The notes: generated by a model from the sequence alone, not told the origin. Numbered from the whole stretch's first letter, positions 1-33,389 are shown. The stretch: DNA of 63,979 nt, filler included, from Circinaria calcarea (GCA_051942165.1; 3 parts of 3 records of this genome joined end to end with filler, not necessarily neighbours in it), one strand, 5' to 3'. Numbers and translations: made by a program.

Positions 1-1031
1 GATGGGTCTTCCACAAGAACTGTGCTTGAAGAAGGTAGTCCGGAACCAATATCAAGCTGTAAGTAAAATGGATTTTGCTGCTCTTCATTCGGTGTCTGTT
101 CAGATGTTAACCTATTCCAGATCCTGCGGTGACTGGAGGGAGTTCCAAAGATCTTGGCACAATCTTTGTCCAGTTTCAAATTCCCCAGATGGAAACTGCC
201 AAATTCCCAGCAAAGGAATCATTGCCAGGAAGGATTTCGCAAGACGATTTATCTCTAATGCTAAGGGGAAATCAGCAGAGCAAACCACTTCCGGGAAAAA
301 TCCACCAGCATCACAGCGAGGTAGACGTGGAAGCACTCCTTGAGAAGAAAGCACTTTCTGAGGCTGTTTACAAGAACGTATCTCGCCGCATCGAGGGTAT
401 TCAAAGCAGACAGGCGTCTCTGGAGAGTCGCTATCCAGCTAGTGTGGCAATCGCCTGACGTGCAGTGGTTAATGCGGAGCGTATCATCCCATTGACCAAA
501 ACCATGGATGAGCATAAGGCCATTATGGACGAGGTAAATGATATCCTTGAACGGCTCCGAAAGCAGAATGAATCCCAGTTCTACACACCAAGACCAGTCA
601 ACGACTATGATGAATTCCAAAACGACAAAGGATTTCGCGGTAGTCCTACGTTCGATGCCACCAATTGGTCCAATCGTGACGAGCTTGTCTATGGTGTTCC
701 TGGGAATCAAGGCGGTGTTGGACTACGCTATGGGAATGAGCACTATCAGACCGCTCGATCCCGCCGCAACACGCGAATGCATTGGGGATTCAACAACTAC
801 GGAACTAGAAAATGCCGGGACTGGATCTACCGCGGGCATGCGCATAATACCGGCGTTGCTGCCTACTGTCAAAGCAGGGTGACTGGCGGGAGGATATACG
901 GCGGGGGGACATTTGGAGAGCAAGGAGTCACTCAGTATGGCACAGCGTCTTATCAGGGGAATACAGCATCTCGTCGGGCGGTACCTTTTCATCCAGCCGT
1001 TCAACATCTCAGGGGTCCAAGTCATGTTTGA
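1..1031 (+). pseudogene. Array copy A: 5'-truncated paralogue of the CCCH/helical-domain family, with an in-frame TGA at 456-458
   Basis: Intron 59-120 (GTAAGT..TGTTAAC..CAG, phase 1) is followed by YPAVTGG, the family motif. ORFs 129-458 and 465-1031 are in the same frame. Joined across the TGA they give EKKALSE...DEHKAIMDEVNDIL, which aligns with copies B-D. Confidence 0.65.
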
Positions 1032-2174
1032 CATGGGCTATCTTAGAGAGCAGTGACACGGGGTAGATGAAGATGCGGGTGCCAAACGAAGGGTCAATAG
1101 GGTATGGTGAGTCAATACGCCATCATAGGCAGAGGCGTTGACTTGGGAATTCTTCTGGAGCATCACTCACATAGCGCCGAGCTTTAGGTTTCAGAGGCTT
1201 TTGTTGCTAAAGCCGGATGTGCTAAAAGCAGAAATCAAATGAAGCATGTCATTAGTCTTAAGCAATATGTATGATGGCATGTATTGCTATCTGAGTGTGT
1301 AGTTATCTAAATTAGCATACAGCGAAAAGTTGTTTTTGAGAGGTTTGTAGAGAGTGTTGAGCGTGGACTACGTATTACGAGTAGGTAACACGTGACTCGG
1401 TAAGCCCTATGCTTTCCAACAAATTAGGTCCACTCGGGCTCCGAGAGCAACTAGTTAGAGTTACACGTTTGAAACTTACAGATCGAATAGGAATTCGCAA
1501 ACCGAATCCTGCCATAACCTTCACGTATCTGTAACTTCGCAATCACTGTAGACATTGCCGTTGACACGTAGAATTTAGTAGCCCATCATTCCCAGCAAAT
1601 TCACAGCAAGTAGCAGTAGATGAATGCCTCTGTCATTGGTAGAATATGTAACAGTACCCATTTCGTATTGCCTCCATCTGAATTCCCAAGCTCTGGTAGC
1701 TGAACATCTATCCTCTCCTTGTGTGTATATATATATATGAAAAGGTCTGACCACGTGAGGGGAGTACCCTAAGGAGGATCTAGCTCTCCGAGTCCGGTGG
1801 TACGTGGGATATCTCCGCTTGTCCAACACTTGATGCTCGATAGATATTCCGGGTCTTGATATAGGTGTTGTTTCTGCTCGCTACACCTAGATGTGATTCT
1901 ACCGTAGTGCTATCCGTTACTTTAATCTCAATCGTTCCTACCTTAGATCTCTTCGTCAACATCTCACACACTTGCAGACCTTGCCATACCTTGACACTCT
2001 CTGAAAGTCGTAGCATCAACGTCCTCTTCTGTTGCTATTAGCTTCTGTGTAGGAAGTGGACCTGCAAATTCAGAAGGTAGGTATCTGTCGTTCTGTTACT
2101 CATACTGCCCCGCTCATATACCTGTGCCTCTTGTCTCTAGCACCTCAAAAAAGCTTCTGAATCAGACTGTTGAG

Positions 2175-3161
2175 ATGAGCCAAATCGGTCAGCACGAGGA
2201 GTCTCTGGCAGGCCAACAACACACTCCGATGCAAAGAAACGCATCTCTTCAAAGACACGTCGCTGTCCATCGTGCAGATCCAGGAAGCAGTCACCTAAAT
2301 CGTCGTGCCTCTATCGCACGGGTTCGTGGTCATGTGCATCGTCCAAGTCGTCTCCGGGATTGTATCACACTTGATACTCCTAGCCGTCTTCGCGATATTG
2401 TTGCGACAGAGCCTGCGCTTGAGAACGACTCGAGCACGGCCTCCAATCCGCCACACTTGGATGTTCCAAATTCGACGCCGAGAAACGAACGACCTGATTC
2501 CGGGGATAGCAACATCGAAGCCAACACCCCACGGGTTGTACAGACCGAGCAGAATCCTCGTTCGGTCAAGAATATAACGTGCCACTGGTGGGCTACGAAG
2601 GTGTGCAGGTATACAGAGGACGAGTGCTTGTATGCCCACTCGATCCAGAAGACGATTGCTGAGCAGCCGCGGAAGCTCGATCCCAATGGTAAGTCAATGT
2701 GTTCGACCTCGAAGTACAGATCTGATATTTTCCATAAAGGGCCTCCTGTTGCAGGGCGAAACGCTCATTCGTCCAGACCAGTTCATCGAGATTGGCGAAG
2801 CGCACATCAGCTTCCACGTCCCGCAAATAATCTCGAGGCAGCTCTCCCAATCCAGCAACCGGAGGTCCAAAGGTCCTCCCAACAGCAAGTATCAGATCTC
2901 GCCGAAAAGATCGAGACTGAGATTGAAGAGATGAAGAAGAAGAGGGGTATCTCAGAGAGTGTTATTGCAGACATCTGCAATAAAGTGGACTCCGAGCTCC
3001 GCTACGGACGGGGTCTACAGCAACAGCTTGGGTACTTTGAAGCCGTACCACAGACCGAGATCATTATGAATTGGGTCTTCGCCGCGAATGACATTGTAAG
3101 GCAGCATAGAATCATAATCGATTCTATCAATGAAGAGCTTGGAGCTATGGGAAAGCTCTAA
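2175..3161 (+). CDS. Array copy B: CCCH (C-x7-C-x6-C-x3-H) zinc-finger protein with C-terminal helical domain
   Basis: Finger KNITCHWWATKVCRYTEDECLYAH. In-frame 51-nt intron 2689-2739 (GTAAGT..AAAG) gives DPNG-PPVAGRNA. Probable 5'UTR intron 2077-2140. ATG at 2175. Confidence 0.8.
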   Translation: MSQIGQHEESLAGQQHTPMQRNASLQRHVAVHRADPGSSHLNRRASIARVRGHVHRPSRLRDCITLDTPSRLRDIVATEPALENDSSTASNPPHLDVPNSTPRNERPDSGDSNIEANTPRVVQTEQNPRSVKNITCHWWATKVCRYTEDECLYAHSIQKTIAEQPRKLDPNGKSMCSTSKYRSDIFHKGPPVAGRNAHSSRPVHRDWRSAHQLPRPANNLEAALPIQQPEVQRSSQQQVSDLAEKIETEIEEMKKKRGISESVIADICNKVDSELRYGRGLQQQLGYFEAVPQTEIIMNWVFAANDIVRQHRIIIDSINEELGAMGKL

Positions 3162-4513
3162 GTGAAGACAGGGAAGTGGTTTCAGAGAATGGATAGATGG
3201 GAGGGATGATTTATATGTATGGGGCGAAACGTTTACGTAAAGACAAAACTTTGGATCTATTGCTGCAACGGATAATTCGCGCATCTGCAGGTCGTAATTG
3301 GTCACGTCTGGTACTCTCGCGATGCGCCGCAGTAGCAAAGACTGGAAACTGTTTATCCTATACCTGAGAAAAGGTTTCTTGACAAATAGACAGATGTATA
3401 TTGTGTTCTCTCAGAAATAAGGATCATGTTGTTGGGGCTTACGTAAGCCGACCAGTATTTTAGCGAACTCTCTTGCTCTTACCTAGTTACATGAACATGC
3501 AGAAAATTCCAAGATCCTTGAACGTAGTGCATTGCAGGAATACAATGTGTGGTAAGAGGTTTGGTGAAAAGTCTAAACGGCTCAAGCGCGTTGCCTAGAC
3601 AACGCTAGTGCCCGGCCTGGAACATCAATTTCACCGCTCCATGCTCCGTTTGTAAACATAGATTCGCTAGGCCCTTCAGTTACCTACAAGGAGTGTAAGA
3701 TGTTTACATGGCCGTTGTCATTCTAACCATGTGTTATATAGCCTTCCGGTAGTAGTTGTAGGCTTTAACTAATAAGCCCTCATTAATACCCATCGTTCTG
3801 AGCGCAGCGACATCTACTTGAAATCCATTCTTGTCCAGCTGCCTGCCGTGAAAGAAATACGGAAAGTACTCGCACGAACCTCTACACCTATATCTTCCCC
3901 ACCAACAACTCTAGGGGACCGTATCTAAGCAATCAAGGCATGTGTTTGTCTTCACTTGTACTTAAGGTCACCAGAACTCTTCCTTCCTTCCTAAATGAGC
4001 TTCATAGATTGCTCCCTTGACTGCGTAAACTTATAAAGCTTCTAATATGTAGATATTTATGCCTCAGTACTAGAAGTATAAAGTATAAATGCTAGCGAGT
4101 CATACGTCTGGACGATAGTTATTTACGGAGTGTTGGGCGTTTGTCTCATACAATGCTTTAGATGGTCTTGCCGAAACCCACATGAGTACACCCACAAGTA
4201 GGGGCCAGGACCAAAGTGATAACCCTAACCCTAGCTCCGTAGCGCCAAGGGCCCCGGAGAGCTAAACATATGAATACGATTTTGATGCAAACATTACTCC
4301 CTGCCTTACATATATCTGTCCTAACTCATAATATCTTTCAACTGGGAGTAGTTTCTAACCTACCCCTACCACTGTCCTCCAACCAGCGATTCTTTCAAGA
4401 AGAAATTACAGAAAGCATTCTAGTGGGTTGATGGCAGTTTCTCACCACAACGTTCTCCTTCCTCACTAAAATTAATCATAGGCAGTTTAGCCGAAGTGTC
4501 GAAATAATCCTAG

Positions 4514-5553
4514 ATGAACTTGTCAACAAAGCAGTCCGGGAAACCGCTCCATAACAGAATAGCTGCAATCCGTGGCTACCGCCGTCCACTAGAACAGCCA
4601 AGAGCGTCAAAGGAAGTTCTCTTGAATGCTCCCCCAAGAATACGAACACTCTTGTCCAACGAAACTGCACTGAGAACATCACCAAAGGGGATCTCGAGTA
4701 ATGTCGGAACAAGCTCGACAGGGTCCTCACCAATTGCGGGCATTCAAGTAGAGCATGTGAACTATTCTGCATTCTTTTCTCCCGCCCATTATTCTCCTGC
4801 TTCGAGTGCATCAAGTTCGAGTACATATGAGCAAGGGGATATAGCCAACAAGACGAGCCCGGGAATAGGCTCTAAAGTTGGCGCTGCTTTCCAAGAAGAT
4901 CCAGATTCAGGTGAACGTGTCACATGCAAATACTGGAACTGTCATTTAGCAAACTGTAAACATGAAGTGGAGGAATGCTTGCATGCCTCCAAGGAAGCAC
5001 ATCGCAAGGGAGAAGGGACTAGCGAGATCGACGTTGGGCGTACGCGAATCCGATGTTGATATGTGATTGCCACCAACTGACATAGTTAAAAGGACCTGCT
5101 GTCACTAGAGGGTATGAGGTATCAATCTATCAAGCAGGCATGAATTGGCACGAGACGGATTTCTCCACTCCATGGCCAAGTCCACTCTCCCAGGAGCAAC
5201 CTTCATCTACCCCCAGCATCGAACGGGAGTTATACGACATGTCAGCAAGACGAGTCTTAAATTATGCACAACAAGTAAAAGAAAGCATGGACGATGCAGT
5301 TCAAGCTTTAAGGGAGAAAAGAGAAATCTCCGAGCAGTCAATTGCAAACTTACTACAGAACGTCAATTATGTTCTCGACATAAGTAGAGACATGGTTTTG
5401 CGTTGTGGGTACCTTGAGGCAATATCTAAGATGAACGCAGTCCTTCGCGTGGTTACTGCCATGCATGAGATGGTCGATCAGCATCGTGCTATTAATGACG
5501 AGATAGATGAGATCTTTTGGCGTCTCGGGGTGTACAAGACAGGTGCAGAGTGA
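4514..5553 (+). CDS. Array copy C: degenerate CCCH zinc-finger protein with C-terminal helical domain
   Basis: RVTCKYWNCHLANCKHEVEECLHAS has Ser at the 4th ligand. Intron 5040-5092 (GTACGC..CTGAC..AAG) joins ORF 4514 to ORF 5140 in frame via RPAVTRG. C-terminus EKREISEQ...DQHRAINDEIDEIF. Confidence 0.75.
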
Positions 5554-6277
5554 TGAGATAGGTAGGATGCATTGAATTGAACAGAGATATGGATTCGAAG
5601 GATTGGGTAGGACCATCAAGAATTGCTAGAGTGAGGAGAACAAGACTGTGGCCAGAAGTTCCGTGCCCTAGGATGTAGCTGCAGAGTTACGTCAATTTTC
5701 GCCTGGTGTGATACCTAGGTAGCAAAGAAGATCTGTTCAGGTACTCAGCCCTTTCTCAAAAGAACACTTGTCGTGAAATCGTGATTTCTTCCAACATATG
5801 CTCTAACCATTGGCAGCTTCTAGAGATTAGACATTTTCATCCAGAAATTCGGATGCACATTGGGAAAGCCTATTGGTATAAGCGAGCATGCAAGGAGCAC
5901 ACCTACCCGTAGGGCTAGATAGACAATCGTTAGCTGAAGCGAGTTAGCATTTGTAAAGGCCTAATAATGCCATTTTTGATTACTCCATCTTCAAACCCAT
6001 GTTGGGTTCCAGAATGGACACAAGCCCTATTGTCCATTGTTGCTGTGTTAACTTGGCTAGATTGTGTAGGCTCGCAAGGTATCCTTAAATACCTGACTCT
6101 TCGAAGGCCTTTTTCTTCGTCATCACAGGCACGATTAGAACTGGGACTTGCCTTGACCAAACTGAGAAGACCGTATTGACACATCGTTGAAAATACAGGT
6201 AGTACCGGCTCTCTCCTAGCATGAAATAATACTCGTCTGACAAATATGAGCAAAGCAGGCGAGCTCTGCTTTTCGAC

Positions 6278-7200
6278 ATGGACAGCATGAACGTACTGCC
6301 TAATAGGAGTGTTGCCGCCCTTCAACCTAAATACCATACATCCAGTCTTTCAAATATGCACCTTACACCCTCGAATAGAGATACCCTTGCCTCTTCTTGC
6401 CATCTCGACGACACAGCTACGGCGAACCCAGCTCCGCTTCTCCAGCAGTCTATAAGCATCCAGGGACTTCGAAACGATCGTCCGAGTCTTCGTGTTTTAC
6501 AGTGCCATCCAAAGTCGCCTTGGGTGGGGCGTTTGAAATCAGAGCCAGAAGTTCCATCCTCTTTGCCTTCAACCATGCAATCTTTTGCCAGTAAAGTGGA
6601 AGACTTCGCGCGTGCTGAACATCGGGGCGATGAGGCGAACAGAGTAGCGGATGGTAAGCCCTGCTTTCGGTGTACTCTTACTAAGCAGTGTTATTCTGGC
6701 ACCGGAGTGCTAACCTTTTGGAACCGACCTCAGCCACCAGAAAAGATACACAAGAGCCTCGTTCAACCCACTTTAACTGGCGCCAAAAATATTTTCCCGG
6801 CGTTAAAATCTCCAATACAGGTCATAGCATCAATCCGAAATTCACTTCGAAGCCGATTCCAACTCTCAATTTCCCAATCAGTTCAGAGGGAGTAGCTCAC
6901 TCTCCAAAGAGGAACCACGAAACAAGACGCGCTCACGAGGTGGATGTGGGGGCACTGAAAGTAGAAAGAGCTATATCGGAGGAGGCTATCGCGGGTCTGA
7001 TAAAACTATTGGACTCCATTCTCGCAACAGCAAGATTGTTGACACAACGATTGGGTTTCATAGCGGTAATACCGCAAACGGACCCCATCCTCGAGATGGT
7101 TGTTGGAATTAACGAGATGGTTGGGCATCATCGATCAACGATTGATAAGATAGACGCTACTTTGAGGGAGGCTGGCAAACGAATCGAAAATGAGATATGA
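6278..7200 (+). CDS. Array copy D: family member lacking the zinc finger, helical domain retained
   Basis: Phase-1 intron 6654-6733 (GTAAGC..TGCTAAC..CAG; alternative in-frame acceptor at 6688) joins ORFs 6278 and 6688. C-terminus ERAISEEAI...LGFIAVIPQTDPI...GHHRSTIDKID matches copy B LGYFEAVPQTEII...QHRIIIDSIN. Confidence 0.7.
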
Positions 7201-7560
7201 CAGTAGGCTGATCGAGGACGTTTTGGTAAAGAGTAGTTCTGCTTTTCTAGACATAACAGGGGAGAGATGGATAGAGGGAGGTGTTGAATATCGGAAAACC
7301 AGATAGAGAGCATGCACAGTCTCGAAATCCGTGTTTCAATAGTAATATTTATGTCTATGTCTCGAGATCGCGTTCATTAATGGAGTGCCATGGTTATATC
7401 TTGTTATTTTTGATTGCAAGACACGACGTCGACCCCAATCTAGCTTTCCCCAGCAAAGCTTAGCTTCATCCGCAAGCAACACCCGCGCGGTTAACCCCTT
7501 GACCTTGACAACGCGTTTTTCGACATCTGCCCATTTTTCATATTTCCCGATTCGCATGTA

Positions 7561-7786
7561 AGAGTATAGAGCATAAGTCATTGGCCACCCCCCATTTTTT
7601 CCAAGTCCACTCACCGCAGAGTAAATTGATCATTTCGGTAAATTACGGCCCACCTCGACTAGCTAGCCGGGATACCCTTCTGATAGTGGTGGGTGGGGCC
7701 GTAATTTACCGAAATTATCAATTTACCCTGCGGTGAGCGGACTTGAAAAAAATGGGGGGTGGCCAATGACTTATGCTTTATACTCT
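7561..7786. mobile_element. 226-bp MITE with ~90-bp terminal inverted repeats and flanking TA (Tc1/mariner-type)
   Basis: 7561-7650 is the reverse complement of 7697-7786 with 5 mismatches. TA at 7559-7560 and 7787-7788. No coding capacity. Confidence 0.85.
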
Positions 7787-10354
7787 TACCAACCCGCAGT
7801 AATTCACCAGAATAGCTCCGATATCGGCCTTGCAGCATCGACCTTTCATATGGATCTGTACCCAAAACTATGCCCCAGCTGTATGTTCTGTACCGTACAA
7901 CTGACTCACCAAATAGCAGACCGAAGGCTCATCCGCGGCTGTGATAACAAATCATCATCGTACTCGACTTCGCCGCTAGTTACCTGCTGGTATCTCATGG
8001 TCTGTGAAGATACGAGAAACTTGACCACAATCCGTACCTGGTTCCCCAGCCAAAACTTTAAAGCCAGTTGACTGCCGCCTCTCTTCTACCTCATTACTGT
8101 GCAGTACTATTCCTCAGAGGTGCCGCTTTCAATAACTAATTTTTTACCGATTCTAATACTTCGAACAAGCCTGTCATATCGGTGAAGTCCAATTTCCGCA
8201 GCGAATTCCGCTTGGTTGTCTCCTTGTCTCTTCAATTGACCCTTCTGGCCATATCTTGTAACTATTGTTTGATATTAATCCCATATTGTAGGCTTCTTGA
8301 TTAACTTTTCCTGCAGCAATGGAGTTTCTAGTAACGTGCTGACGAAAGCCATATTCCGCCCCTCAAGTCAGTCGGCTGGTGCTGGACCCAGACGAGAACC
8401 TAGTAAAAGGCTTCACCACACTAAGAGTCTGCATTCAACTATATGCTTGTGACTACAGAGATTTATCTCAGAAATTGCTCTGCTCATTACCATAAGCCCC
8501 AGCCCGAGCACTGTTGCCGGATCTTGATCTTTTACCTAGGAGACTAATGGAATGTTTTAGGGAACTTAAGAAATAAGTCGTTGACTCATAGAACTGTTCA
8601 GGACACTCACGGAATTGTTCAAGAGACCCATAAAACAGGTAGCTATGGGTAACATATTTGCTGCAAGGTAGTGACTCTTCACTGCTGCGTGTCGGATAAC
8701 GGCTGGCTATGCTCCCAACTTTGCTGAGGGTTGGGCGTGATTCATAAGTTTGCTTGGTGGATCTTCAGTCTGTTGTATAACCAGGGCTTTCAAGCTATCT
8801 CCAGGGTCGATCAATCACCTTAGCCTTCTTTCTTCCAAAGGGAATGCGATCTTCTAACCAATGAGCTGTGCGTCCGCCTAGGAATTGTTAGCCTTTTTAC
8901 CCCCAGTTTCTTCCGGTGATAGGACAAGCTTTTTCTGTAACTTCTTTCCTTCCACTACTCCTATGGCCAGATTCTGGTAAAATGATGTGGTTCTGAATTG
9001 CTGTAGGTACTGGGAGACTTGAAGTAACAATGGGATCTCCTGTGTCTGGAAACTTAGCATTGTACTCTCCTCACATCCTACAGCCGTTGCCAAGTGTCCA
9101 CTGTTGACATTTTATAGTTGCTTCGAATCTGCACTCGCCTTATGGTCAACGACGATAGGTCTACAAGCCTCGTTTGACAAATATCTTGATGCGTCAGGCG
9201 TTTCGATTAGGAGCTCGACTGCATAGGTACAGTTTCAAGAAGGAAGCTCAGTAAACGTAGTGCGGACATACTATCTTCAAAAAGCGGCTGAAGAGCATAA
9301 GTCAAGAGAGGTTTGTAAAGCTGCTTTCAGAGAGAGGATCAGGGGAAACTCGTCTTAGAGCGGACCAGACGTAAGTACATGTACTATTGGTTTTTTCAAT
9401 CTTTTTCACGGTTAGAATTTCCGAAGGGAAGAGACTCGACTTGGAAGGAAGCCTCATGGTAATGTAAATATGATAGGGCTCCTTGCGAGAGGTTCGTAAG
9501 AGTCTATGTTTTGTGTAGGTGGCTTTCGTTTCAAACATGATCTTCAGTTGGTGGCTAGGGAGAGAAGAGGGTACTTCCTCAGAGCTTTAGCAAGGTTTGG
9601 CTAAGCTACATGGAGGACTGCCATTGAGTCTCCATCTGTTGCTTCTCTTCGGTAGAAAACTCTCGTCCTGTCGTCGATGTTGGCTACTGACCTTGTCACT
9701 ACAGACGCTCCGAGGTAGAGTGCATGTGGGTGCAGAAGATTAAGGTAAGAGCTTAACAACTGACCAGTACCCAGATGGTTGCTGCCGCCCGTGTTGATTA
9801 TGGTCTTGCAACTCAAACAGATGCATGTTGGCACGAGGAAGGCACTGGGTATTAGGGACGAAAAAGGTACCATGTTTGATTCAAACAGAGCGATGATAAC
9901 TTACTTCTGTTATCAGGTACTGACACATTGGTATAAATTTGTGCGCAATCCAGACAGGTAAAACATTCTGTCAATCTCGCCTAGAATCCGCTTGCCCTCT
10001 TCAGTATATAGTGTAGTGTCAACTAACTCCTTTTATTCATCTTCGTTAAATTCTTCACTGAGTCATCCTTAATCATAAAACCCACAAAAACCGGAGACTT
10101 TCTTATTTTGTCCAACCTTAGGAAATCCCAAGATTAACCAGCTCTTGATCCCTCAGCTTTTCACTCCTTTACCAGCTTCATCTTTTTCGTCCTTCGGTGT
10201 TGTGACTCCTTGATCAACAGAGCCATCACACCTTTTTCAGTTCGCTCTCAAGCACACAGATTCTTGATAGAAAGTGTAAGTATTTCTGCGTTCTCGACTT
10301 ATCTTACCATCTCAGGTCTGATACGCTATTATGATAGCACTCGATCCCTCACAA

Positions 10355-11622
10355 ATGAATCCCTCTACCCAGAACTTAAGGCCCGGGTCTGGTCGACCAG
10401 ATTCAAGTAATCCTGGCTCATCTCGTCGAGGTCAGAGTGAAGGCTACAATACTCGCCCTGATGAGTCCCTATACACTGGCAGTGTCGGAATGGGAACGGA
10501 AAGCCCGAGGTCGACTTATAGCCAGCTGGGCTATGGCAACCCAACTGTAAACCGTTCCGGCCACCTCTCAAGCAACTGGCAGCCCTATACTGGCCACCTC
10601 AGCAGTGAATTCGGGGATCCAAGGAATACCAAGCGTGAAGTCGATGAGCTTACCTATGAGTCTGGTTCATCTGGTTTACGCATGGGTGAAGAATCTGGTC
10701 TCTCAACACAGGATGCCTTCGAACACGGAGCATTTAGGGACCAGCTTCCACGTGGTGGAAAACACCACCGACAACCTAGACTCGACAGTGGTAGTGTCTC
10801 AAGTAGCTGTGGCGGTTCCAGATTTGATGACTTCGATGAGAACCCTCGTCACAACCTCTTCGGTGGTTCGAGAGACTCTCGCGCTCCTCGTAGCACAGAT
10901 TTTCGAAGCCCGGCTGACAAGCCCTCGGTGAAGCACTTGACATGTGTAAGTCCGTTACTCTGTTGCAACTATAAGATATTGACGAGAACTGGATAGTGGT
11001 ATTGGTGGTCACGCGGCTCCTGTATCCATTCTGACGAGAGTTGCCTATACTCTCACTACGACACCGGCGCACGCGCAGATCAACCAGTGAAGATGGATCC
11101 CAGCTGTGAGTAGACATAAATTTGAAAGATCTAAGAATCGGAAATATATGTTGTTAACTGTCAATAGTGCCATCTGTCGCCGGCCGCAACGCCATAGAGC
11201 TCGAGGGTAAGTATACGGAGCAACTAAAGAAAATTTCTCGGGCTGCAATGGGAGGAGAACCAACTGAGACTGGATATGCTTCCAACAAAAAGGTCGACCA
11301 GCTGGAGAACGCGGTCAAGACGCTTGGGACAAAGCTAGAGGAAGTGGCCCGAAATCAGGCTCAATGGAGTCAACAGGCAAGGCGCGAACATCAGCTAATG
11401 AGCGCGCTGTCACTGGCTGCCAAGCGAGGGGAGATCACCAACACCGAGCTGGAGCAGGTCGGCGCGAAGATGGAGGCGCGACTGAGGGAGGGAGAGGAGA
11501 CACTCAACCAATCGGTCACTGACATAGTGAATATCAACGACATGGTTAAGCGCCAGTTGGGTGTGGCCGGCTTCCATCAGTTGGGTGCGGCCAGTATCTC
11601 GAGTCGGCCGCGTCGTGGTTGA
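10355..11622 (+). CDS. Array copy E: CCCH (C-x8-C-x6-C-x3-H) zinc-finger protein with coiled-coil C-terminus
   Basis: Exons 10355-10945, 10997-11105 and 11168-11622. Introns 10946-10996 (GTAAGT..TAG) and 11106-11167 (GTGAGT..TAG) give KHLTC-WYWWSRGSCIHSDESCLYSH...MDPS-LPSVAGRNA. Confidence 0.85.
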
Positions 11623-12228
11623 TGCGGAAGGTGACATTCCAGTCACTTTTGGTAGACGTATGTATCAGCTCGACTAGAAAAGGCTGTGTGAAGGCTCTTG
11701 AAAATACAAAGCTAAGTATGTGATTTCGCATAATGCTTATCTAAAGAATTGCCTTGTATCGTGATCTAAATGTTAAACCCACAACTTGTTGATCGAGAAG
11801 CGCGTTTTGGTTTAGGGTCTGTGTTTACTAAAAACGAGACCTTTCGCGTAATCGTCCCAGTCCCTCTGCTATGTTCTCCTTTTCCTCCAGCAATGACTGT
11901 CACCTGAACCTGAGAAAGTGGGCACCCTTCTCATATAACACTTCGTACAATCCACGACTCTAAGGTCAACTCTAATCATGATAGCAAGTCCTGGCTGTGC
12001 ATTCCGTATGAAACTGTTAACTCCCTACCACCCACTGTGAATTCACTTAGAGTATCCAATCGGTGTTAGCTTGGTGAGTCTGATGAAATTCGCTTTTGTT
12101 GCTCCCAATGATTTGTTTCGTTCGATAGGAAGCAGATTGTAAATACAAAGGCAGTCATCTTGCAGTACTCCTAAAAGCACTTGCACTTACTTTTGCGGCT
12201 CATTTGGAAGTATCCTTACCAGTCAATC

Positions 12229-13586
12229 ATGGACTGCAGAGGGGATTCTAGCTTTGCCCATGCACTGAAGCAGCAAGGATGCCAATACACAGCTTCAAAC
12301 ATCCAGACTATCGACACGCGTACCATGGACAGTCCCCAGGACATTACATACCCCCACCAAGAGATAGCCCCGTCACATTCAAGATATATGCGGCGGTGTC
12401 AACCCTACTACTCAACACAGAGCTACTCTGCACAACATCCTTACAACTACCATCAAGACGGGTCCTACTATAGACCAAATAGTGCTGCCAGTGCTTCGCC
12501 ATACAGTTACCATGAAGGCTTTCTAACGGCCAACCATCATAACTTCGGTGGCGATGCTCCACACCAAGAGGTAAAGGCTGAGCCTAGCGAGCAGCACAAT
12601 CAGTGGAGCCCAGGCGAATTCAGGGAGTCGAGTTCCAACAGTTTTGCTGGTAAGTAGCCTTACCATAATTCTCGAAAGAAGATTGACAAAGGCAATTGGT
12701 ACATTGAAGCTCACGTAGCCACTTATCTAGGACAAAACGATACTGATTTTAAGTACGAGGTTCCACGAACCTCGTTTGTAAACACTCAACAACATATCCC
12801 TTCTTCGCATGACCAGCTCGCAGCTACATGCGGCTTAAACAGAGCGACATCCAAGAATCAAACCTGCCACTTTTGGCGCAACGGCCGTTGTATCTATTCA
12901 GAAGATGCTTGTTTCTATGCGCATCATAACATAGACCACAAAGACTCTCAGCCAGTCAAGTGCGAATCTGATTGTGAGCGCGGCCACATTTGCAAAAAAA
13001 ACGAGCTGGTAAACTGATAGTACGTGCAGGTGCCTCCACTGGATATAGCAATACCGATGATGTTTATTCTCCTCAGCCCGCCTTTGTTGATCCAAGTGCG
13101 CCTGCACCCCATGGAACCCAAGCATCTTCGGAACAGCAGAAACATCCGGAGGAACCAACACATCTATTGCCCTTCCATCTCACCAGCCCAGCAACCAGCG
13201 AGCTACCCAACCCCTACCGCCCCGATCTCAGCCCCTCATTCCCTCCCCACCAACCTGATCCCCGAACCGCAAACGCCATCACCACAGCCTACCAAGAGAT
13301 CACCCACCTCAAGGCCGTCATCAGCGCGCAGAAAATCGCTCTTTCCGACGCCAGGATGATTGCCCTACAGGAGGCCAAGCACTACGCCTCTGAGCATGAG
13401 AGGATATGCCGCTTGGCGGAGAGTGTCAGAGAGGGCACCGCGAATTCCAAGACGGTGATGTATGCAATGGATGAGATGGCGCCGAGACTCTTGCAGAGAA
13501 AGCAGACTATGGAGACGTTGGCGAAGAGGGTTGATTGTGGGGACAGAAGGGAGGGAGTTGGTGGGGAGGGGGCTGTGAAGGCTTGA
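12229..13586 (+). CDS. Array copy F: CCCH (C-x7-C-x6-C-x3-H) zinc-finger protein with helical C-terminus
   Basis: Exons 12229-12649, 12731-12973 and 13030-13586. The middle exon (not in the ORF track) encodes KNQTCHFWRNGRCIYSEDACFYAH. Introns 12650-12730 and 12974-13029 are canonical. Start codon uncertain. Confidence 0.8.
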
Positions 13587-14067
13587 GTCTGGATTAGGTT
13601 GGCGTAAGAGAATAGATTGGGATTTTGAGTTTTAGATGGTATTTGGAAAGAGACTTTCCTCTACATAGCACAGAGGCATGGAAGTCTACGGTTTCAGAAA
13701 GCACCTTGGAGATAGGAGCATACTTCAGGAAGCACGCATTCAAAGGAATAGAAGAGCAGTAGACGCATTGAAGACCCTACGCTGAATCGAAGAACATCCC
13801 TCCCTATAAGACATAGCGTACTTCAATCTTGCTCAAAGATGAATTGATCAAACCATAGGTATGGAACTTTCCATGAATAAGACTACATCGAATAGTAGCA
13901 AAACGAGAATACGGAATGGCGGGAGAGTCAGGTTATGGAATCGGCAGAACATGTCAATACAGACATGGTGGAAGAAAAATATATCTTGTACAAAAAGGTG
14001 CGAGAGATCGCTCCGCAGTCTTGTGATAAATAAGGGAGGGGTGCTGGAAAATCGGGACTAGTAATAT

Positions 14068-14131
14068 AGGAATTAGGTGATAGAGGAATTAGGTGGTAGA
14101 GGAGTTAGGTGATAGAGGAATTAGGTGATAG
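14068..14131. repeat. Minisatellite, 4 x 16 bp (AGGAATTAGGTGATAG)
   Basis: Copies at 14068, 14084, 14100 and 14116 with single A/G variants. Confidence 0.9.
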
Positions 14132-14767
14132 AGTAGGTGAGGATATCAGCTCTGTAGTCGGTGAAGCATGAAAGCAAGGTGCCACGGTGCTTAGTACAAT
14201 TTCAACGGTGGACGCACTATCTTGAAGGTGCGGTTCATTATCTCAAACAATGGAACAAGGTTGCCAAGTGAAAGGACTATCTTGGGGGCTGTCTCAAATG
14301 GTGTAGGGAGTGTCTGGAACATGCATACTCAAAGAACAATCAAGACTTGCGCTATTGAATGTCCAGATCATGACAGATGTCTAGGAGAGAAGGCTGGATG
14401 AGGGTCGCACATTCTCTGACAATGAGTCCTTGTATCAAGTGGCGTCTGTTAGCAAATAATGAAAGTCAACAACCGATTAGATACGACCGGATTCCAAAAG
14501 CTGCATTTACTTTTCTAGGCAATTCTTGACTTTCCTGGCTTGCATTGCCAAAAGTATCCAGCACTGACGAGAAGGAATCATCTCGAATCACTTTGCGGAA
14601 CAAGTAGGTATATATGGCATGCACTCTCCTATATGACATTGACATCACAGCCACCTTGGTTTTTTTTAGAGCCACAAACCCCAGACATATATCTTTTTTA
14701 GTAACCACCACCGAGAACCAAAAGTGCTTTCTGAGGGCTCACTGCACACTGTTGGCCAAGAAACAAC

Positions 14768-15229
14768 ATGGCCAGGCCCATCGACACAGGTCATGCCATA
14801 GAGCATCCAGCCAAATTTAGCCTGGAGGGATTGACCTATAGTCTTTTAGATGAAGGAAACAATTGGCCACCAGTGACCATCAGACGAGTGAGGCCAGAGA
14901 AAAACTTGTTGCCGAGAGACATACTCATCATTCTCCACGATCTCATGAACAAGGTGAAGGAAGCGGTGCAAGAGTTCGATAACCATCTCGCTACACTCGG
15001 TCCCCAGGTTGAAGCTGGCAATCTTACTTGGGTGAACGATTACGAGCTCAGCTGGGAGGCCCACAATCGTTTGCGCCTGGCGGCACAGGCTTTCCAAAAG
15101 AAGAAGTACCAATCCCCAGAGCACGCAAAGCTGGTCGAGCCTTTCAATAAGCACTTGGAGGAGCTTCTAGAGTACGAGGATCAACAGATGGCGGACCTGA
15201 TAGAAATGAAAGAGGCATTCGAGTACTGA
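14768..15229 (+). CDS. Hypothetical helical protein, 153 aa
   Basis: Intronless ATG-started ORF with protein-like amphipathic helical composition. No family recognised. Confidence 0.55.
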   Translation: MARPIDTGHAIEHPAKFSLEGLTYSLLDEGNNWPPVTIRRVRPEKNLLPRDILIILHDLMNKVKEAVQEFDNHLATLGPQVEAGNLTWVNDYELSWEAHNRLRLAAQAFQKKKYQSPEHAKLVEPFNKHLEELLEYEDQQMADLIEMKEAFEY

Positions 15230-16243: not shown

Positions 16244-17181
16244 TCATATGGCTCCTAATTCCTTAAGCTTTGCTATCATACCATCAACATCTGATACCTT
16301 TGCGCCGCCCTGCCGTGGGGGAGGTTCTGTAGTCATAGTTAGCCAATTTGCCACATTACCTATTGTAACGTCTCGAGTATTCCAAGGACATACCCGTGAC
16401 CTTCAAGGTCTTCAGTCTCCGCTTGTCGTCTATTCCATAATCGGCCAACGTCTTCTTCTCCAACTTCTTCTTCTTTGCCTTCATGATATTGGGCAAACTT
16501 GCATACCTAGGCTCGTTCAAGCGTAGATCTGTGGTGATGATCATAGGTAGTTTCGCCCGTAGTGTTTCTATGCCTCCATCCACTTCCCTCATCACTGTTA
16601 CATTATCCCCATCGAAGTCGACCTTACTTGCCGATGTGGCCTGCGGCCACCCCAGTAGCCCAGCAAGCATTTGTCCAGTCTGCATGCTATCATCGTCGAT
16701 ACTCTGCTTCCCCAGTATTACTAGGTTTCGATCCTCTTTCTCGACGATCGCCTTCAAGAGTTTTGCTACGCCTAACGGCTCCAAGTCTCCATCCTTTTCA
16801 GTATTTACCTCGACGTGTATGGATCGATCGGCACCCATGGCCATTGCCGTGCGGAGGACATCGCTGCATTTTGCGACGCCAGCTGAGACTGCTAGGATGT
16901 CTGAGACCGGAGTTTGTTTTCGTTCCCGAATTCGGACGGCTTCCTCAATGGAGAGTTCATCGAAAGGGTTCAAGGAGTGTTTGACGCCCACAGTCTCGAC
17001 GGCGGTTTGGGCTTTGTTAACACGAGGTCTTATCTGCCAGTGAGACACCGAATATTAGTTGGGCTTCAAGAATAACAAGAATTCGAATGCCGGCTTTGAA
17101 GTAGCGGAGGAATCGATTGGAGCTCACCGCATAGTCAATGACTCTTTTGACAGGTACAAGAATTCGGAGCGATGTGGACAT
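16244..17181 (-). CDS. ETFB: Electron transfer flavoprotein beta subunit
   Basis: Motifs MSTSLRILVPVKRVIDYA, NPFDELSIEEAVR, LGKQSIDDD and DLRLNEPRYASLPNIMKAKKK. Exons 17181-17128, 17033-16394 and 16326-16244 with canonical introns. Confidence 0.95.
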
Positions 17182-26065: not shown

Positions 26066-28925
26066 CTAACTCACGCTCACAAACTGCCCGATACCCGGCA
26101 CACCGTCGCAAAGCACATAGACCACATAAGGTCCCGGCGGCGCCACGTTTCGATTCGGCGGCATCTTGACCGTCAACTTCTGGCCCGTCTTGCCGGGATT
26201 GAAACCCGTGGTATCCAGATACGCCATCCGATGGTTCATGTGTAAGCTATGCGTGACGAAGCCACCGTGGTAGAGCGCCACCTGGACGGTCTTGGCACCC
26301 GCAGGAGCGGTGAAGGTAAGGGTAAAAGTGGCGCCGGTGGCCTTAAGGGAGAGGGAGCTGAGGGTGATTTTGGTGGGACGTCGGTTTGCGTTGGCACCTT
26401 GGAGGTACGACGGTGTGTAGATTTCCACACGGAATTCGGTGATGTAGTCTTCCGAGGGGACTTGGTTGGGTACGGGGGTGAGAATGGGCATTTCAACGGG
26501 GTTGGAGCCGGCGACTAGGACGGTCCCGTCTAGAAGGAGAAGCGCGACAGAGTGGTAGAGCCGTGCAATGGTAGATGTGGCACCGGTGCTCCAACGTTGA
26601 CCGAGCGGTTTGGTAGGGGTGTAAATAAGAGATTCGTAGGTTGGGTTGGAGGCGATGCCGAAGCCTTGAGCGCCGCGATTGCAGCCATTTAGGAAGAGGA
26701 CGGTACCGTCGGGGAGGAGAGTGCCTTCAACCATACCGCGACCTTCGGGCATCGAGTCCATTTCCCAGGCGGGATTGGCGGAGAGAGGCTGGATGCGACC
26801 GCAGCTGGGATCGGTTGGACTGGTAATGTCTTGGTAGGCACCTCCTCCGCAGATGATGACGTCTGGAGCCCAGTTGTTGGCGCTCGAAAGTGGCAGAAGC
26901 ACACTGCCACCGGTGTTTGGGTAGGTCCGGTAGTCGCCCGGTAGGTCGGGGAAGGTTTTGATGGTTTTGTTTGTGGCGACGTTGAAGATCTCAGAGGATT
27001 TGGAGACGAAGACGAAAAGGTTTCCGTCATTGAGAAGGTGGATAAATGGATACATGTAGTATGGTTGATTCTTGGCCAGAAGATCCATGGGGACGTTGAC
27101 GCCTTGTGAGATACCCTGATTACTTAGGACCTCATAGGTAGGATTGTTGTTCGCAGGCACGGTAGGGTCCAAACCATTCAAACTGCCACTAGCAACAAAG
27201 ATGGTACCATCAGGCATTGTCTGTGCAGAAGCATACCAACGGGCGCTAGCAAGCTTGTTACCGGGCTCACTCCATGATTGACCGTTAAGGGCGGCACTGG
27301 TCGACGAGCGTTGGAGGTATCTGATAGCATTGAACCCGTCCCCAACGGTGGGATCGATGAAATCCAATGGAGCATTGCCACCAAGAGAGAGCCATCGACC
27401 ATCAGGTAAGAAGGCACCACCGGAGCAAAATGCATTCGTCTGTTCTCAATCAGTATCAACTGTTCAATCAAGGACCGAGTCCCCTTACCTTGTAAGAAAG
27501 CCCAACCACCGTATTTGTTGAAGGATCATACTCTGCAGAGTACGCATACTGCCCGTTGCCAAGCTTGATCTGAGTGTAGTTCTCGACCTTGTCCAAGAAT
27601 ATCACGCGGCCGTTTGGCATCAGTCCTGCGTGCATCGCCGGAACACCTGCTTGACCGACGATCTTGAAGATGCCCGGATTGGCGGCAACCGGTGCAGGTG
27701 AGGGACCCGGAGCTGCAACCACGGGTGACCCGGTGCAAGGTCCACTCTGGCATCCATTACCGCAATGAGAGGCTGTGTTACCGCAGACTACATCTCATCA
27801 GCAATGTCACAGTAGTGAATGTCTTGCTTGATGCTTACATCCGTACATTGAGCAGCAACCACCCTGTGGCCAACTGCCGCAGACTGTATTGGCATTGGCA
27901 GCTCCACAGGTCCCATCCTTGGTGGCAACACCACTCCCCCCTCCTGGAGCAGTTGTAGGGATGGGTAGAACCGGCTCTTGCGTAGCTACCGGAGTAGAAG
28001 GGCTCGGCGGGGGCGCAGTGCCTGTACAACCGTTTTGACAACCGTTAGCAGGCAGACAACTATAACCGAATTAGTATGCCGGTAGTAGAAATGAATGTGA
28101 AGAGACTAACTGTCCAGGTGTAGATCCACAAAATCTATAAGTTAGACGTTCACTATCAGCAAGAGATCTGTATTAAGTGCATATCAGGGTTTGTTTCGTA
28201 CCCATATGATGAGCAACAGCCTCCGTAGGCTCCATTGGCATCGCAAGTTGCCCCTCCAAATCCAGTCCCGCATCTACCATCACTCCGGGGAGCCGTTGAC
28301 GGTGGTGCAGCACTAGGGTTCGTGACCGGCCCAGTCGACGTACCTGTACAGCCAGAAAGACAACCAGTCCCGCAATGAGCTGCAGTGTTCCCACACCATC
28401 CATATGACTGGGGGAGTGTCAGCCCGTAGTCCAGGGGAGCAACGTAAAGCAACATGATGCAACATAGGGCCCCAGAAACTCACCGAGCAGCACGTTCCCT
28501 ACTCCATGTTAGCATTATATGGTTCATCTACCAATGGGATGCTCCGCTCACTGTGTACACTGTGCTTTTCGGGTCGCAGAGAAGATTGCCGTTGGCCGGA
28601 CCACATTTTCCATCTGTCGAATAGTTTGGCGCTTGGCGAGGCTCAATGTGATATTCGATGTGGTGACTGAACGATTGAGGGTACAACAACTCGGGGGGCG
28701 TTATGCCGCATCTTTCCGAGATGATATCAGCCCTGTTACCTCTGACGTTCAGAGCAGAAGAGAAAGGACCTACGATCCATCCGCACGGCAGTATTGACCT
28801 CTCAAGCATCCAGTATACCTCGGCGATTCTCGATCGCATGATAGTTGGACGTGTTTAAAGATGATATTGGCGTAGGTGATTGGGAGGAAGATTCCCACGA
28901 ACGAGCAGAGTACAAGGGTCTTCAT
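26066..28925 (-). CDS. Secreted glyoxal-oxidase-like copper radical oxidase (AA5_1) with three CBM18/hevein chitin-binding modules
   Basis: Signal peptide MKTLVLCSFVGIFLPITYA (ATG 28925). Three DGxCG...CCS.YG.CG...HC..GC modules split over small exons. Catalytic motifs NAFCSGG, RWYASA, ARLYHSVALLL and GFVTHS. Confidence 0.9.
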
Positions 28926-30811: not shown

Positions 30812-33389
30812 TTACAGCTGTCCCGCTGCTGTCACCATGTCTCGCCCGTCCAACCTTTCCGCCGTATCCACCCCCCAGGCTTCCCGTCCGTCTCGTGCCC
30901 GGAACGCCCCAAAGGCAAACCTCCTGTCTTCACGTTGTCCCTTGGGTCGGCTGAGTAGCCGTGTCACCAAATCGATCCTGCTGTGCGGGTCTCGAAAGGC
31001 TGCATCGCCGCACAGTGAACTCGGATACCCGAGGCTGATGATGTTGCCGAGAACACGGATGTTGTACGGCAGGTACCTCTTTCGCGTAGGCCAAATGACG
31101 AGGAAGGAAAGAGCGTAGATGACGACGAACACCACCAGAGCATTGTAGGCAGGCACACAGGCAGCTTCCCGCACCGATTGGCTGCCAACGAAGAATTGGG
31201 CGGTGAAGACACCTCCGGCCAGAATGGGTAGAGTGATTGACATGAGGCCGACGAATGAAACCCAGGCCACCTTGTAATGGCGCGCAAGAGCCGCCTTGAC
31301 CGTGACGACTACTGGAAGGCCGCTGCCGTAATCGAGGAGGAGCGAATCCTGGGCGACGGCTCCGTCCGACTTAGCAAGGTTTGCAAAGGGTTCTAGAGTG
31401 CGGAATGTAACGTCGATCGACTGCCAAAAGAGAAATAGAATCATGCTGAGTAGAGATGGGATGAAGCTATAGAGGAAATTGGCGGGGGAAAAGCCAAGGC
31501 TGGTGGTAGGCGCCGGAAGACCGGGTGGGAATCCATTCTGGACGGCTCGGTTGACGAAACTAACGACAAGAAAGGCGATCAGGAGGACTATAGCGATGAC
31601 CATCCACGCTACCACCCATGTTTCGCTTAAGAACCAGGGGATGTAAAGGTACCGCATAGCGGACGACGGGTGACCGGGTCGTTGGCTTTCAAGGTCGACG
31701 CCGGTTGGATTGAGAGGGCTGCCTTCTTGCCCGCTGCCCGTTCCATTATCTTTTTCTCGGTCCGGGTATGATACGTGTTCATGGTCTTCACCAATGCCGT
31801 AAAACGCTTCGCCTAGTCTGCTAGACCTTGTCCAATACCCAAGTCGAAGATTCCTCCATTTTTGTAGATCCGGTAGGCCATCTCCCGGAACATCAGATGC
31901 AGATAGCGCATCAGAGCGTTGTAGTAATACAAAAATGTCGGCTAGAGATACCGGGTCCCATTTCAGTCCTGTGGTTGTTCGTGCAAATCGGAGGTAAAGA
32001 AGGATAAGAGCAATTATTAGATAGAAGTAAAGGACAATCAGCACCCAAGCTATAGGCTGCACTGTTGACCATATCCAAACGCCTTGCGATGAAAGGGTAT
32101 AAAGTCGAGTCTGAAACAGAGAGCTCTGTAAGGGTATCGTAAAAAGACCGAGCCACAATAACACCAAGGCTGTAGTAACTAAAGGTTCTCCATGCTTGAG
32201 AAAAGACAAATTGGGTATCATAAAGTTCGTTTGAACCGTCGCGATGTTGTAGAGATATCCGGATGACCGTTTTGGTCGGTCGGAAGCCAAAAGCGTAAAA
32301 GGCAGAATGCGGTGAACAGCACGCTGAATGACCAGAGTCCAAATGACTATGATGCTTGCTAGAATCTGCGGCAAGAACTCAAAAACAAAGTAACGGCTTG
32401 TCCCAACACCATCATACTGCCATAGACCGTTGTTCTTCGATGACCACGCGCTGCAGAAAATTAGGGCAGCGATCATCAGGATACAACAGAATATCAATCC
32501 AAGGACGGAAGGCAATCGGAGGGAGCTTGGAAGAAAGTCCAGTTTTGGGTATCGACGGACATTAGGAGATGGATCCGCGGGATGATTATTGTGCACGATT
32601 GGAGTATTGTCGGCGGCTGCGAGCGATGTCTGGGCCTGAGGGATGATCGGTTGAGGTCCTAGAGGTTCTGACGCATGCAATTGTTCTCGAGTTGGGATGG
32701 GACAATTGGGCATCTGCCTGTCTTCTGCCGAGGGCGGCATTCCGTCTTCTAGATCGCTTGCCGCACGAATTCTGTTCGGGTTGATAGGGGGAATTGGCGG
32801 AGCGGTGGAAAGTTCAAATTGACCGTCTGCATGTTCGGAGAAGGAATCTTCACTTCCAGCTCGCTGCCTCCGTCTCCCTAGCAGTTCTTCATCCCTGGTC
32901 AATTGATCGATGGCGAACTGAATATAGGGAGTGTCGTCTACCCCAGGGGTGGGAGGGCTGACTTCGCTGACAGAGGGTCTCCACGTCCTTGAATTCCTGG
33001 CAGTCGGCTCCGGATTCCTGAGGATGGCCTCATTGTCAAATCTTGCAGTCCGCGGTGTCCTCCTTTCCATATCGAGGTTTTCTTCTGACCCGGTCATTGG
33101 TTGAGCGTGCTGTACCTGCAATAGGTCTCGACTGGTGTTGGGCGAGCGCATTTGTGAAGGGGGCGTTCGGTATCGTACAATGGTTGTCCGGTCGCTTTCG
33201 GCGGAGACCTCAGAGGCATGGTCGGAAAAGGAGTAGTAATCATCTGAAGCGGCCACTGATTGTTTCGAAGGAGTGTGGGCGAGGTGTGGTTTGCTAGCTG
33301 TGAAATGTTAGCAAGGCTCGCAAGGCTGGATGGAGGCTACCGGTCGGCTCACTGTTGACAGTGTTCAAATGCACGCTACCCAAATTCAT
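30812..33389 (-). CDS. Multi-pass membrane protein, DUF3433-like
   Basis: Two repeated TM bundles ending in ..LPF..LA / ..LEPF.NLA..G...SLLLDY. Also TGLKWDPVSLAD and PGVDDTPYIQFAIDQLTRDEE. First exon 33389-33353, intron 33352-33298. Confidence 0.75.

Follow-up and report, generated by a model that had tools for sequence, protein, structure and literature searches.

CCCH-Type Fingers, Helical Hairpins and the Array of Circinaria calcarea

CCCH-type zinc fingers (Pfam zf-CCCH clan, IPR000571) form the described class that comes closest to the subject of this paper, a tandem array of six genes (copies A to F, positions 1-13586, + strand) in a stretch of DNA from Circinaria calcarea (GCA_051942165.1). 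This stretch, hereafter the window, is 63,979 nucleotides long and consists of three parts of three records of the genome joined end to end with filler. The fingers of the array are like those of the CCCH class in the C..C..C-x3-H order of the ligands and in the aromatic residues beside them, but they are unlike conventional CCCH fingers in having a middle spacer of 6 rather than 5 residues and in reaching no Pfam cut-off. Tandem proteins of the TTP/TIS11 kind carry two fingers 18 residues apart, whereas the array proteins have a single finger per chain; moreover, neither the short AGRNA motif of the array proteins nor their helical hairpin has a counterpart in CCCH families.

As for the hairpin, a pair of long antiparallel helices with a tight turn between them is also found in FadA, the arm of seryl-tRNA synthetase, ESCRT-III/CHMP proteins, prefoldin and the tips of chemoreceptors. 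The identity between these named families and the array hairpin is 2-15%, with Z of 9-10.5, which is the range common for long helices, and none of the families stands out. The likeness of the hairpin to solved structures is best taken as a shared arrangement rather than a membership.

Taken as a whole, the explanation that we consider probable is that the six genes are ancient paralogues of one unannotated fungal gene family standing in a tandem array, whose finger would bind nucleic acid, whose hairpin would form oligomers and whose folded modules would be kept by purifying selection. It is a modest new family, with a non-canonical single CCCH-like finger, the AGRNA motif and a new hairpin domain, all three of which are missed by standard domain scans, and apparently not a genetic system of a new kind. 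The original prediction had described six co-oriented paralogues in this interval, which the gene models and the BLAST comparison between copies bear out, and had recognised no named system in them; indeed the copies reach no Pfam family, and the one relative with a name is a 'hypothetical protein'.

Judging from the sequence, the ancestral architecture is whole in copy B and in the relative P0017. Its first half consists of a disordered N-terminus, one C-x7/8-C-x6-C-x3-H finger, a 16-residue linker and a phase-1 intron, and its second half of the motif P-x-V-A-G-R-N-A, a disordered spacer with a hydrophobic-x-W-R motif, and an antiparallel hairpin of about 85-95 aa. From this plan the copies have differentiated in several ways: B is complete, the finger of C is damaged, that of D is lost, A carries a nonsense codon, and E and F keep the finger with tails that are no longer like those of A-D in sequence. 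The array is an example of tandem paralogues in which a shared intron and short motifs persist, and one module after another, finger or tail, is lost or remodelled.

P0017 (KAL9122676.1, 'MAG: hypothetical protein Q9187_000773', Circinaria calcarea) is a full-length protein of 282 aa with the same order of modules as copy B: a C-x7-C-x6-C-x3-H finger is followed after 16 residues by G and QPAVAGRNA, then by a spacer containing V-P-W-R and lastly by the hairpin at the C-terminus. Its identity to B is 49% in the finger module and 29% in the hairpin; unlike B, it has a much shorter N-terminus, and its finger starts at residue 16.

It has been reported, in a passage of one paper (PMC9232553), that CCCH genes counted by IPR000571 are contracted in lichen fungi. 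Since the fingers of the array score below the Pfam CCCH cut-offs, surveys and counts based on IPR000571 probably overlook fingers like these.

Gene Models and the Shared Intron

The six gene models were built on the + strand from stop-to-stop frames and the raw sequence of 1-13586. All copies are co-oriented, and GT-AG splicing gives frames that are open to their stop, apart from one in-frame TGA in copy A. All 8 introns begin with GT, end with AG and are 51-80 nt long, with a branch-like word (CTRAY/TTRAC) at a distance of 10-25 nt ahead of the acceptor.

Copy A (1-58, 121-1031; phase-1 intron 59-120) is cut at its 5′ end by the edge of the window. Copy B is composed of exons 2175-2688 and 2740-3161 around a phase-1 intron of 51 nt (2689-2739), copy C of exons 4514-5039 and 5093-5553 (phase-1 intron 5040-5092), and copy D of exons 6278-6653 and 6734-7200 (phase-1 intron 6654-6733). 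Copies E and F have three exons each: those of E (10331-10945, 10997-11105, 11168-11622) are separated by a phase-0 intron at 10946-10996 and a phase-1 intron at 11106-11167, and those of F (12229-12649, 12710-12973, 13030-13586) by phase-1 introns at 12650-12709 and 12974-13029. For the first intron of F, alternative acceptors 9 or 21 nt further on are possible.

A phase-1 intron is thus present in all six copies. In A and D it lies at the aligned place, and in all four copies with a finger (B, C, E and F) the fourth ligand position precedes it by exactly 16 codons, so that this claim of the original prediction is reproduced to the codon. P0017, whose annotation is that of NCBI, is continuous across the equivalent junction, at the position of the shared intron (...VEQGQPAVAGRNA...). 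It had also been stated that the fingers of E and F sit in small exons, and this is the case: in E exon 1 ends with the codon of the first Cys and an exon of 109 nt holds the remainder of the finger, and in F the finger lies in an exon of 264 nt. Because the finger of E is rebuilt only by splicing, its gene model is independently supported.

The GC content of the genes is 0.47-0.53 versus 0.43-0.45 in the spacers. The TpA/ApT ratios of the array genes (0.52-0.77) are akin to that of the neighbouring gene Tra1 (0.62), and on this ground the array genes look coding and without a signature of repeat-induced point mutation (RIP). RIP was considered as the cause of the divergence between copies and rejected, the indices in the genes being like those of Tra1.

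The in-frame TGA of copy A is at 456-458, inside the hairpin, where its aligned orthologue P0007 has Arg. The frame remains open for 190 codons beyond the TGA and still matches P0007; therefore the stop is recent, strain-specific or an error. Read-through of this TGA is a further possible explanation. After the hairpin, copy A continues into a long C-terminal extension rich in Gly, Tyr and Asn.

The Finger Module and the Post-Intron Motifs

Intact fingers are found in B, E and F, all on the + strand. Those of B (2580-2639) and F (12865-12924) are of the form C-x7-C-x6-C-x3-H, and that of E (10943-11056), split by the phase-0 intron, is C-x8-C-x6-C-x3-H. The finger-like segment of C (4925-4990, +) is damaged, with a longer first spacer and Ser at the fourth ligand position. 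In D the finger ligands are absent and the finger hidden Markov model (HMM) has no match. Copy A shows 19 codons before its intron, with Ser at the position of the fourth ligand, and the remainder of its finger region lies left of the window. That is to say, the ligand order in which three Cys are followed by one His (C-x(n)-C-x(n)-C-x3-H) is present in B, E, F and P0017 and fails in C and D, so the CCCH finger ascribed to the array by the original prediction stands for three copies, is damaged in C and is missing from D.

The HMM of the finger module was run against 2501 open reading frames (ORFs) from six-frame translation of the 64 kb. Its matches are confined to B, C, E and F, with values from 1.5e-27 to 1e-20, and the value of the next one is 0.057; there is one match per gene, and each of B, E and F is single-fingered over the six frames of the window. 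It should be noted that this HMM and that of the hairpin (below) match their own training sequences by construction; the information in the scans is that the 64 kb contain nothing else similar to them. A scan for the ligand pattern finds the fingers of B and F and one unrelated match on the minus strand, the intron-split finger of E being undetectable by pattern.

The sub-threshold Pfam matches of the fingers are to CCCH-type models only. Besides its best match, given further on, the finger exon of F scores 14.1 bits with zf_CCCH_4 (cut-off 29) and 14.6 with Torus (29), and P0017 scores 13.3 with Torus (29); B, C and E have no Pfam CCCH match at E<=1. In the Atlas search, the 10 best family-bearing matches are all to the CCCH clan, with scores that are low (about 0.8) and serve as a lead only. 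A comparison of the finger profile with the sequences of the PDB gave just two low-complexity chance matches (E about 0.8), with a profile that is dominated by the long spacer of P0017. In addition, B, E, F and P0017 have aromatic residues behind the first Cys as well as in the interval from the third Cys to the His, positions beside the ligands that we take to be the RNA-contacting, base-stacking sites of CCCH fingers. From these features the finger may be regarded as a putative nucleic-acid binder, with RNA as its most likely ligand.

Immediately after the shared intron, four copies carry the short motif that had been reported for the array as a whole: PAVTGG in A (123-140), PPVAGRNA in B (2742-2765), PAVTRG in C (5095-5112) and PSVAGRNA in E (11170-11193), all on the + strand. 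These four were correctly read; the P-x-V-A-G motif is absent from D and F, which have ATRKDT and ASTGYS, respectively, after the intron. A second small motif, hydrophobic-x-W-R/Q, follows about 10 residues after the PxVAG position in B, C, D and the relatives, and A has F-Q there.

The C-Terminal Hairpin Domain

Copies A-D share a homologous C-terminal domain of about 85 aa, located on the + strand at 315-566 in A, 2904-3158 in B, 5284-5538 in C and 6934-7188 in D. Its HMM, built from A-D and run against 1326 six-frame ORFs of the whole window, matches only A-D (4e-50 to 5e-13), the next match having an E-value of 0.96. Among them, C scores 4.1e-50 and D 2.1e-48, and A is matched on either side of its TGA (2.4e-18 and 4.6e-13). 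The alignment of A-D over this domain, as originally proposed, thus holds by both BLAST and HMM. The helical C-terminus had been claimed for all six copies, and its homology is shown only among A-D, the tails of E and F having no sequence or profile similarity to those of A-D.

The last 100 residues of B, modelled with AlphaFold2 from an alignment of 13 rows, are predicted to form an antiparallel hairpin of two helices (residues 2-57 and 59-99) with a mean predicted local distance difference test (pLDDT) of 91.9. The tail of E (11290-11571, +), which is of its own type, was modelled together with three orthologues and gave helices of 53 and 40 residues (33-85 and 91-130) with a core pLDDT of about 90, so that its predicted layout is that of B, a two-helix arrangement of about 55 + 40 residues. 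This agrees with divergence of the tails from one ancestral hairpin, no proof being given by the models. The tail of F (13272-13535, +) is putatively helical by reading of its sequence, and no similarity to the tail of E was found with hhalign.

No family can be named for the hairpin from fold searches, and it has no Pfam match. With the B hairpin, Foldseek gave a best E of 0.22 and TM of 0.6-0.68, the hits being FadA, seryl-tRNA synthetase arms and ROP-like designs; the VIA fold search gave a top Z of 10.5 and 139 chains at Z>=8, among which are ESCRT-III hairpins, prefoldin, chemoreceptor tips and a NuA4 subunit. For both models the fold matches are generic antiparallel hairpins, many of them within intermolecular bundles. 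An Atlas search with the tail of E returned only generic bacterial helical clusters (0.85-0.86). A homodimer prediction for the B hairpin scored 0.00 in a run that made no use of the alignment and is informative neither way.

Relatives, Conservation and Age of the Array

A word-indexed search with copy B found one protein, P0001, which is 62% identical and keeps the finger. When the HMMER profile of the A-D domain was compared with 1,835,955,588 representatives, 13 proteins were obtained at E<=0.001. Three of these (P0006, P0012 and P0014) were dropped, being long repeat proteins with 14, 10 and 3 short matching stretches, and 10 believable members of the family remain. Only one cluster is named, through two 'MAG: hypothetical protein' entries of Circinaria calcarea (Lecanoromycetes, Pertusariales). 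Full-text searches of the literature brought up no description of a finger/AGRNA/hairpin family, and scans of metagenome contigs with the B-group and E-group alignments gave no contig encoding a relative.

Almost every copy has orthologues of its own. The orthologue of A is P0007 (38% identical over 323 aa), those of B are P0001, P0002 and P0003, that of C is P0004 (67% identical), those of D are P0005 and P0008, and those of the last exon of E are P0018 (88%), P0019 (64%) and P0020 (62%); the identities of the B and E orthologues are in the range of 62-90%. For the last exon of F, 66 candidates of near length were compared, and none proved to be a relative.

The identity is unevenly distributed along these proteins. 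Over the hairpin it is 67% between A and P0007, 75% between B and P0003, 64% between C and P0004, 66% and 67% between D and P0005 and P0008, and 68% and 66% between E and P0019 and P0020, versus 14-53% over the disordered linker segments when A-E are compared with their more distant orthologues. This difference points to constraint at the level of the domain in A-E, including the finger-less D. Between B and P0001, the finger plus linker is 95% identical and the N-terminus 71%.

Within the array, the copies were compared by BLAST in a database of the six proteins. The strongest pairs are B-C (2.1e-15 over 311 aa), B-E (1.5e-12), B-D (4.2e-12) and C-D (1.4e-11); copy A is linked more weakly to C (1.9e-4), D (3e-3) and B (0.033), and F is linked through the finger module to B (2.0e-7) and E (9.6e-7). 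The protein identity between paralogues is 20-31%, a divergence too great for dS to be estimated between them, and no DNA-level repeat between copies was found in the window, from which it follows that the duplications are old.

A maximum-likelihood tree was made from 14 hairpin rows. P0010 (partial, in the cluster of P0017), P0015 and P0016 (in the 90% cluster of P0005), P0001 (which has no hairpin) and the unalignable E and F groups were left out. Copy A is joined to P0007 and P0013 with support of 100/100, C to P0004 with 99/99, and D to P0005 and P0008 with 85/90; B, P0002 and P0003 are on short branches, and P0017 is the longest branch. Since hairpins of the A, C and D types group with their own orthologues, the duplications predate the splits between these genomes, and the old local expansion put forward by the original prediction is upheld by these groups as well as by the divergence of the copies.

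P0009 and P0011 form a clade (100/99) that has no member among A-D, and P0011 starts with PAAVERNA, a variant of the AGRNA motif; the two may represent a further paralogue type, or the form of the family in a more distant species.

The relatives also give a hint of a conserved array. The longest contig recorded for each of P0003, P0005 and P0013 (B-, D- and A-type) is 15,642 bases; that of P0007 and P0019 (A- and E-type) is 18,649 and that of P0004 and P0016 (C- and D-type) is 7,772, which suggests that the array may be conserved in relatives.

Proposed Working and Alternative Explanations

In the working proposed here, the finger would bind a nucleic acid, whether RNA or another. Fingers that stand singly usually need partners, one alone being expected to bind weakly, and the hairpin is conserved; for these reasons it is proposed that hairpins pair into four-helix bundles and so form homo- or hetero-oligomers. 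Such oligomers would join two or more fingers, like the two fingers within one tandem-CCCH chain, and the finger-less D and the damaged C could modulate or titrate the finger-bearing members, with ordinary purifying selection on both folded modules maintaining the array. The six proteins are a concrete set for asking whether pairing of hairpins offsets the single finger.

Several points weigh against this explanation. First of all, the cut-off is reached with none of the Pfam CCCH models, zf-CCCH_3 scoring highest with the finger exon of F (16.5 bits, cut-off 31), and every intact finger has a middle spacer of 6 versus the conventional C-x7-8-C-x5-C-x3-H. As for the latter, a passage of one paper (PMC3427045) gives C-X8-C-X6-C-X3-H among the non-conventional CCCH motifs of plants. 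Secondly, the genes are predicted ones, zinc and RNA binding by their finger is putative, and oligomerisation through the hairpin is a proposal. Thirdly, with an HMM of 13 hairpin sequences the tails of E and F have E-values of 24 and 40, respectively, and hhalign gives them a probability of <=0.5% against A-D with whole or trimmed alignments. A single hairpin family for all six copies is thus suggested by the N-terminal modules and by the predicted layout of E, and homology cannot be proved from a fold as simple as a hairpin of two helices. Finally, the synteny in relatives rests solely on equal recorded contig sizes.

The first of these points also speaks for a different reading of the finger, in which the family is real and the finger would be a DNA- or protein-binding zinc module, for example of a transcription factor or adaptor, with the hairpin as a site where other proteins dock and not as a module of self-association. 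Besides the failed CCCH cut-offs and the unusual C-x6 spacer, the fold matches of the hairpin include subunits of NuA4 and Mediator, at the same generic Z of 9-10 as all the others, and according to the abstract of one paper (PMC10262688) DNA as well as RNA can be bound by CCCH proteins. In the array proteins no DNA-binding domain came to light. Moreover, the aromatic residues occupy what are presumably the RNA-contacting positions of a CCCH finger, and a DNA- or protein-binding role is on the whole unlikely, though it deserves attention.

The original prediction had gone further and considered the array to be under birth-and-death evolution of a kind typical of conflict loci (meiotic drive, allorecognition, or defence against viruses and transposons) or of lineage-specific RNA regulators. 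As a conflict locus, the array would evolve by rapid turnover in an arms race. Decay is indeed visible in the TGA of A, the lost finger of D and the damaged finger of C, but recent births and turnover of copy number are not seen. The distribution of the family is very narrow (10 believable members in 1.84 billion representatives), the copies are strongly diverged, and one hairpin-forming inverted repeat lies in the spacer between D and E; these facts would all fit a conflict locus. Against it, a fast-turnover locus would lack stable one-to-one orthologues, and in a partial test at the protein level supported orthologue groups were found for A, C and D and orthologues for B and E. The folded modules are evenly conserved, as seen in the hairpins of A-E in comparison with their linkers and in the finger plus linker of B and P0001. 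There is neither a recent duplicate nor a DNA repeat between copies, no RIP-like signature is present, the neighbours are housekeeping genes, and the Pfam scans show no toxin, nuclease, HET or NLR-type domain. Because A-E have orthologues with conserved hairpins, the array is old and probably maintained and does not behave as a fast-turnover conflict locus, and we regard the conflict reading as quite improbable.

The last alternative, an artefact made of chance ORFs or dead pseudogenes with a likeness in low-complexity sequence, could appeal to the in-frame stop of A and to the last exon of F, which has no detected relative, but it is close to refuted by orthologues with conserved domains in several other assemblies, by one relative annotated independently with the same architecture, and by consistent splice signals in 8/8 introns and a coding-like composition.

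Returning to the ancient finger-and-hairpin family, a bolder form of it can be imagined, which we offer as speculation with little weight. It would be a combinatorial RNA-binding system private to lichen-forming (Lecanoromycete-type) fungi, in which B, E and F would co-assemble with D, C and perhaps A in mixed four-helix bundles, and the choice of RNAs would depend on the mixture of expressed paralogues. If so, the array would be the multi-gene equivalent of a tandem-finger protein, possibly with stage- or symbiosis-specific post-transcriptional control.

Surroundings of the Array

The spacer between D and E (7201-10330) is 3.1 kb long, more than twice any other spacer of the array. Six of its ORFs were scanned, and none has a Pfam match. 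It could hold a decayed seventh copy, and the hairpin and finger HMMs detect none. The inverted repeat in this spacer (7558-7789) consists of two arms of 94 nt each (7558-7651 and 7696-7789), 95% complementary, around a loop of 44 nt; it occurs once in the window and could be the remnant of a miniature transposon or a hairpin-forming element. Among 11 ORFs of the spacers and the opposite strand there is no Pfam match at E<=0.01, and scans for Rfam families and tRNAs gave nothing. A search for promoter words common to the regions upstream of B-F gave only one 8-mer in 4/5 genes and one 9-mer in 3/5, which are treated as chance.

To the right of copy F, a tandem repeat at 14065-14144, before the next ORF, has a 16-nt unit (TAGAGGAATTAGGTGA-like) in 4 overlapping copies of 32 nt. 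It is followed by a frame of 164 codons (14735-15229, +) with a helical, acidic look, which has no match to Pfam or to the hairpin and finger HMMs and is perhaps a small gene of no relation to the array. Ordinary conserved genes make up the right three quarters of the window (16356-63338). On the minus strand are ETF (16356-17054), glyoxal oxidase (26066-27445), DUF3433 (30812-33307), ABC1 kinase (34315-36425) and PP2A B56 (46462-47289), and on the plus strand are SUR7/PalI (41476-43206), TFIIIC Tau95 (49596-50396) and Tra1 (51951-63338), the last of which is a single frame of 3795 codons.

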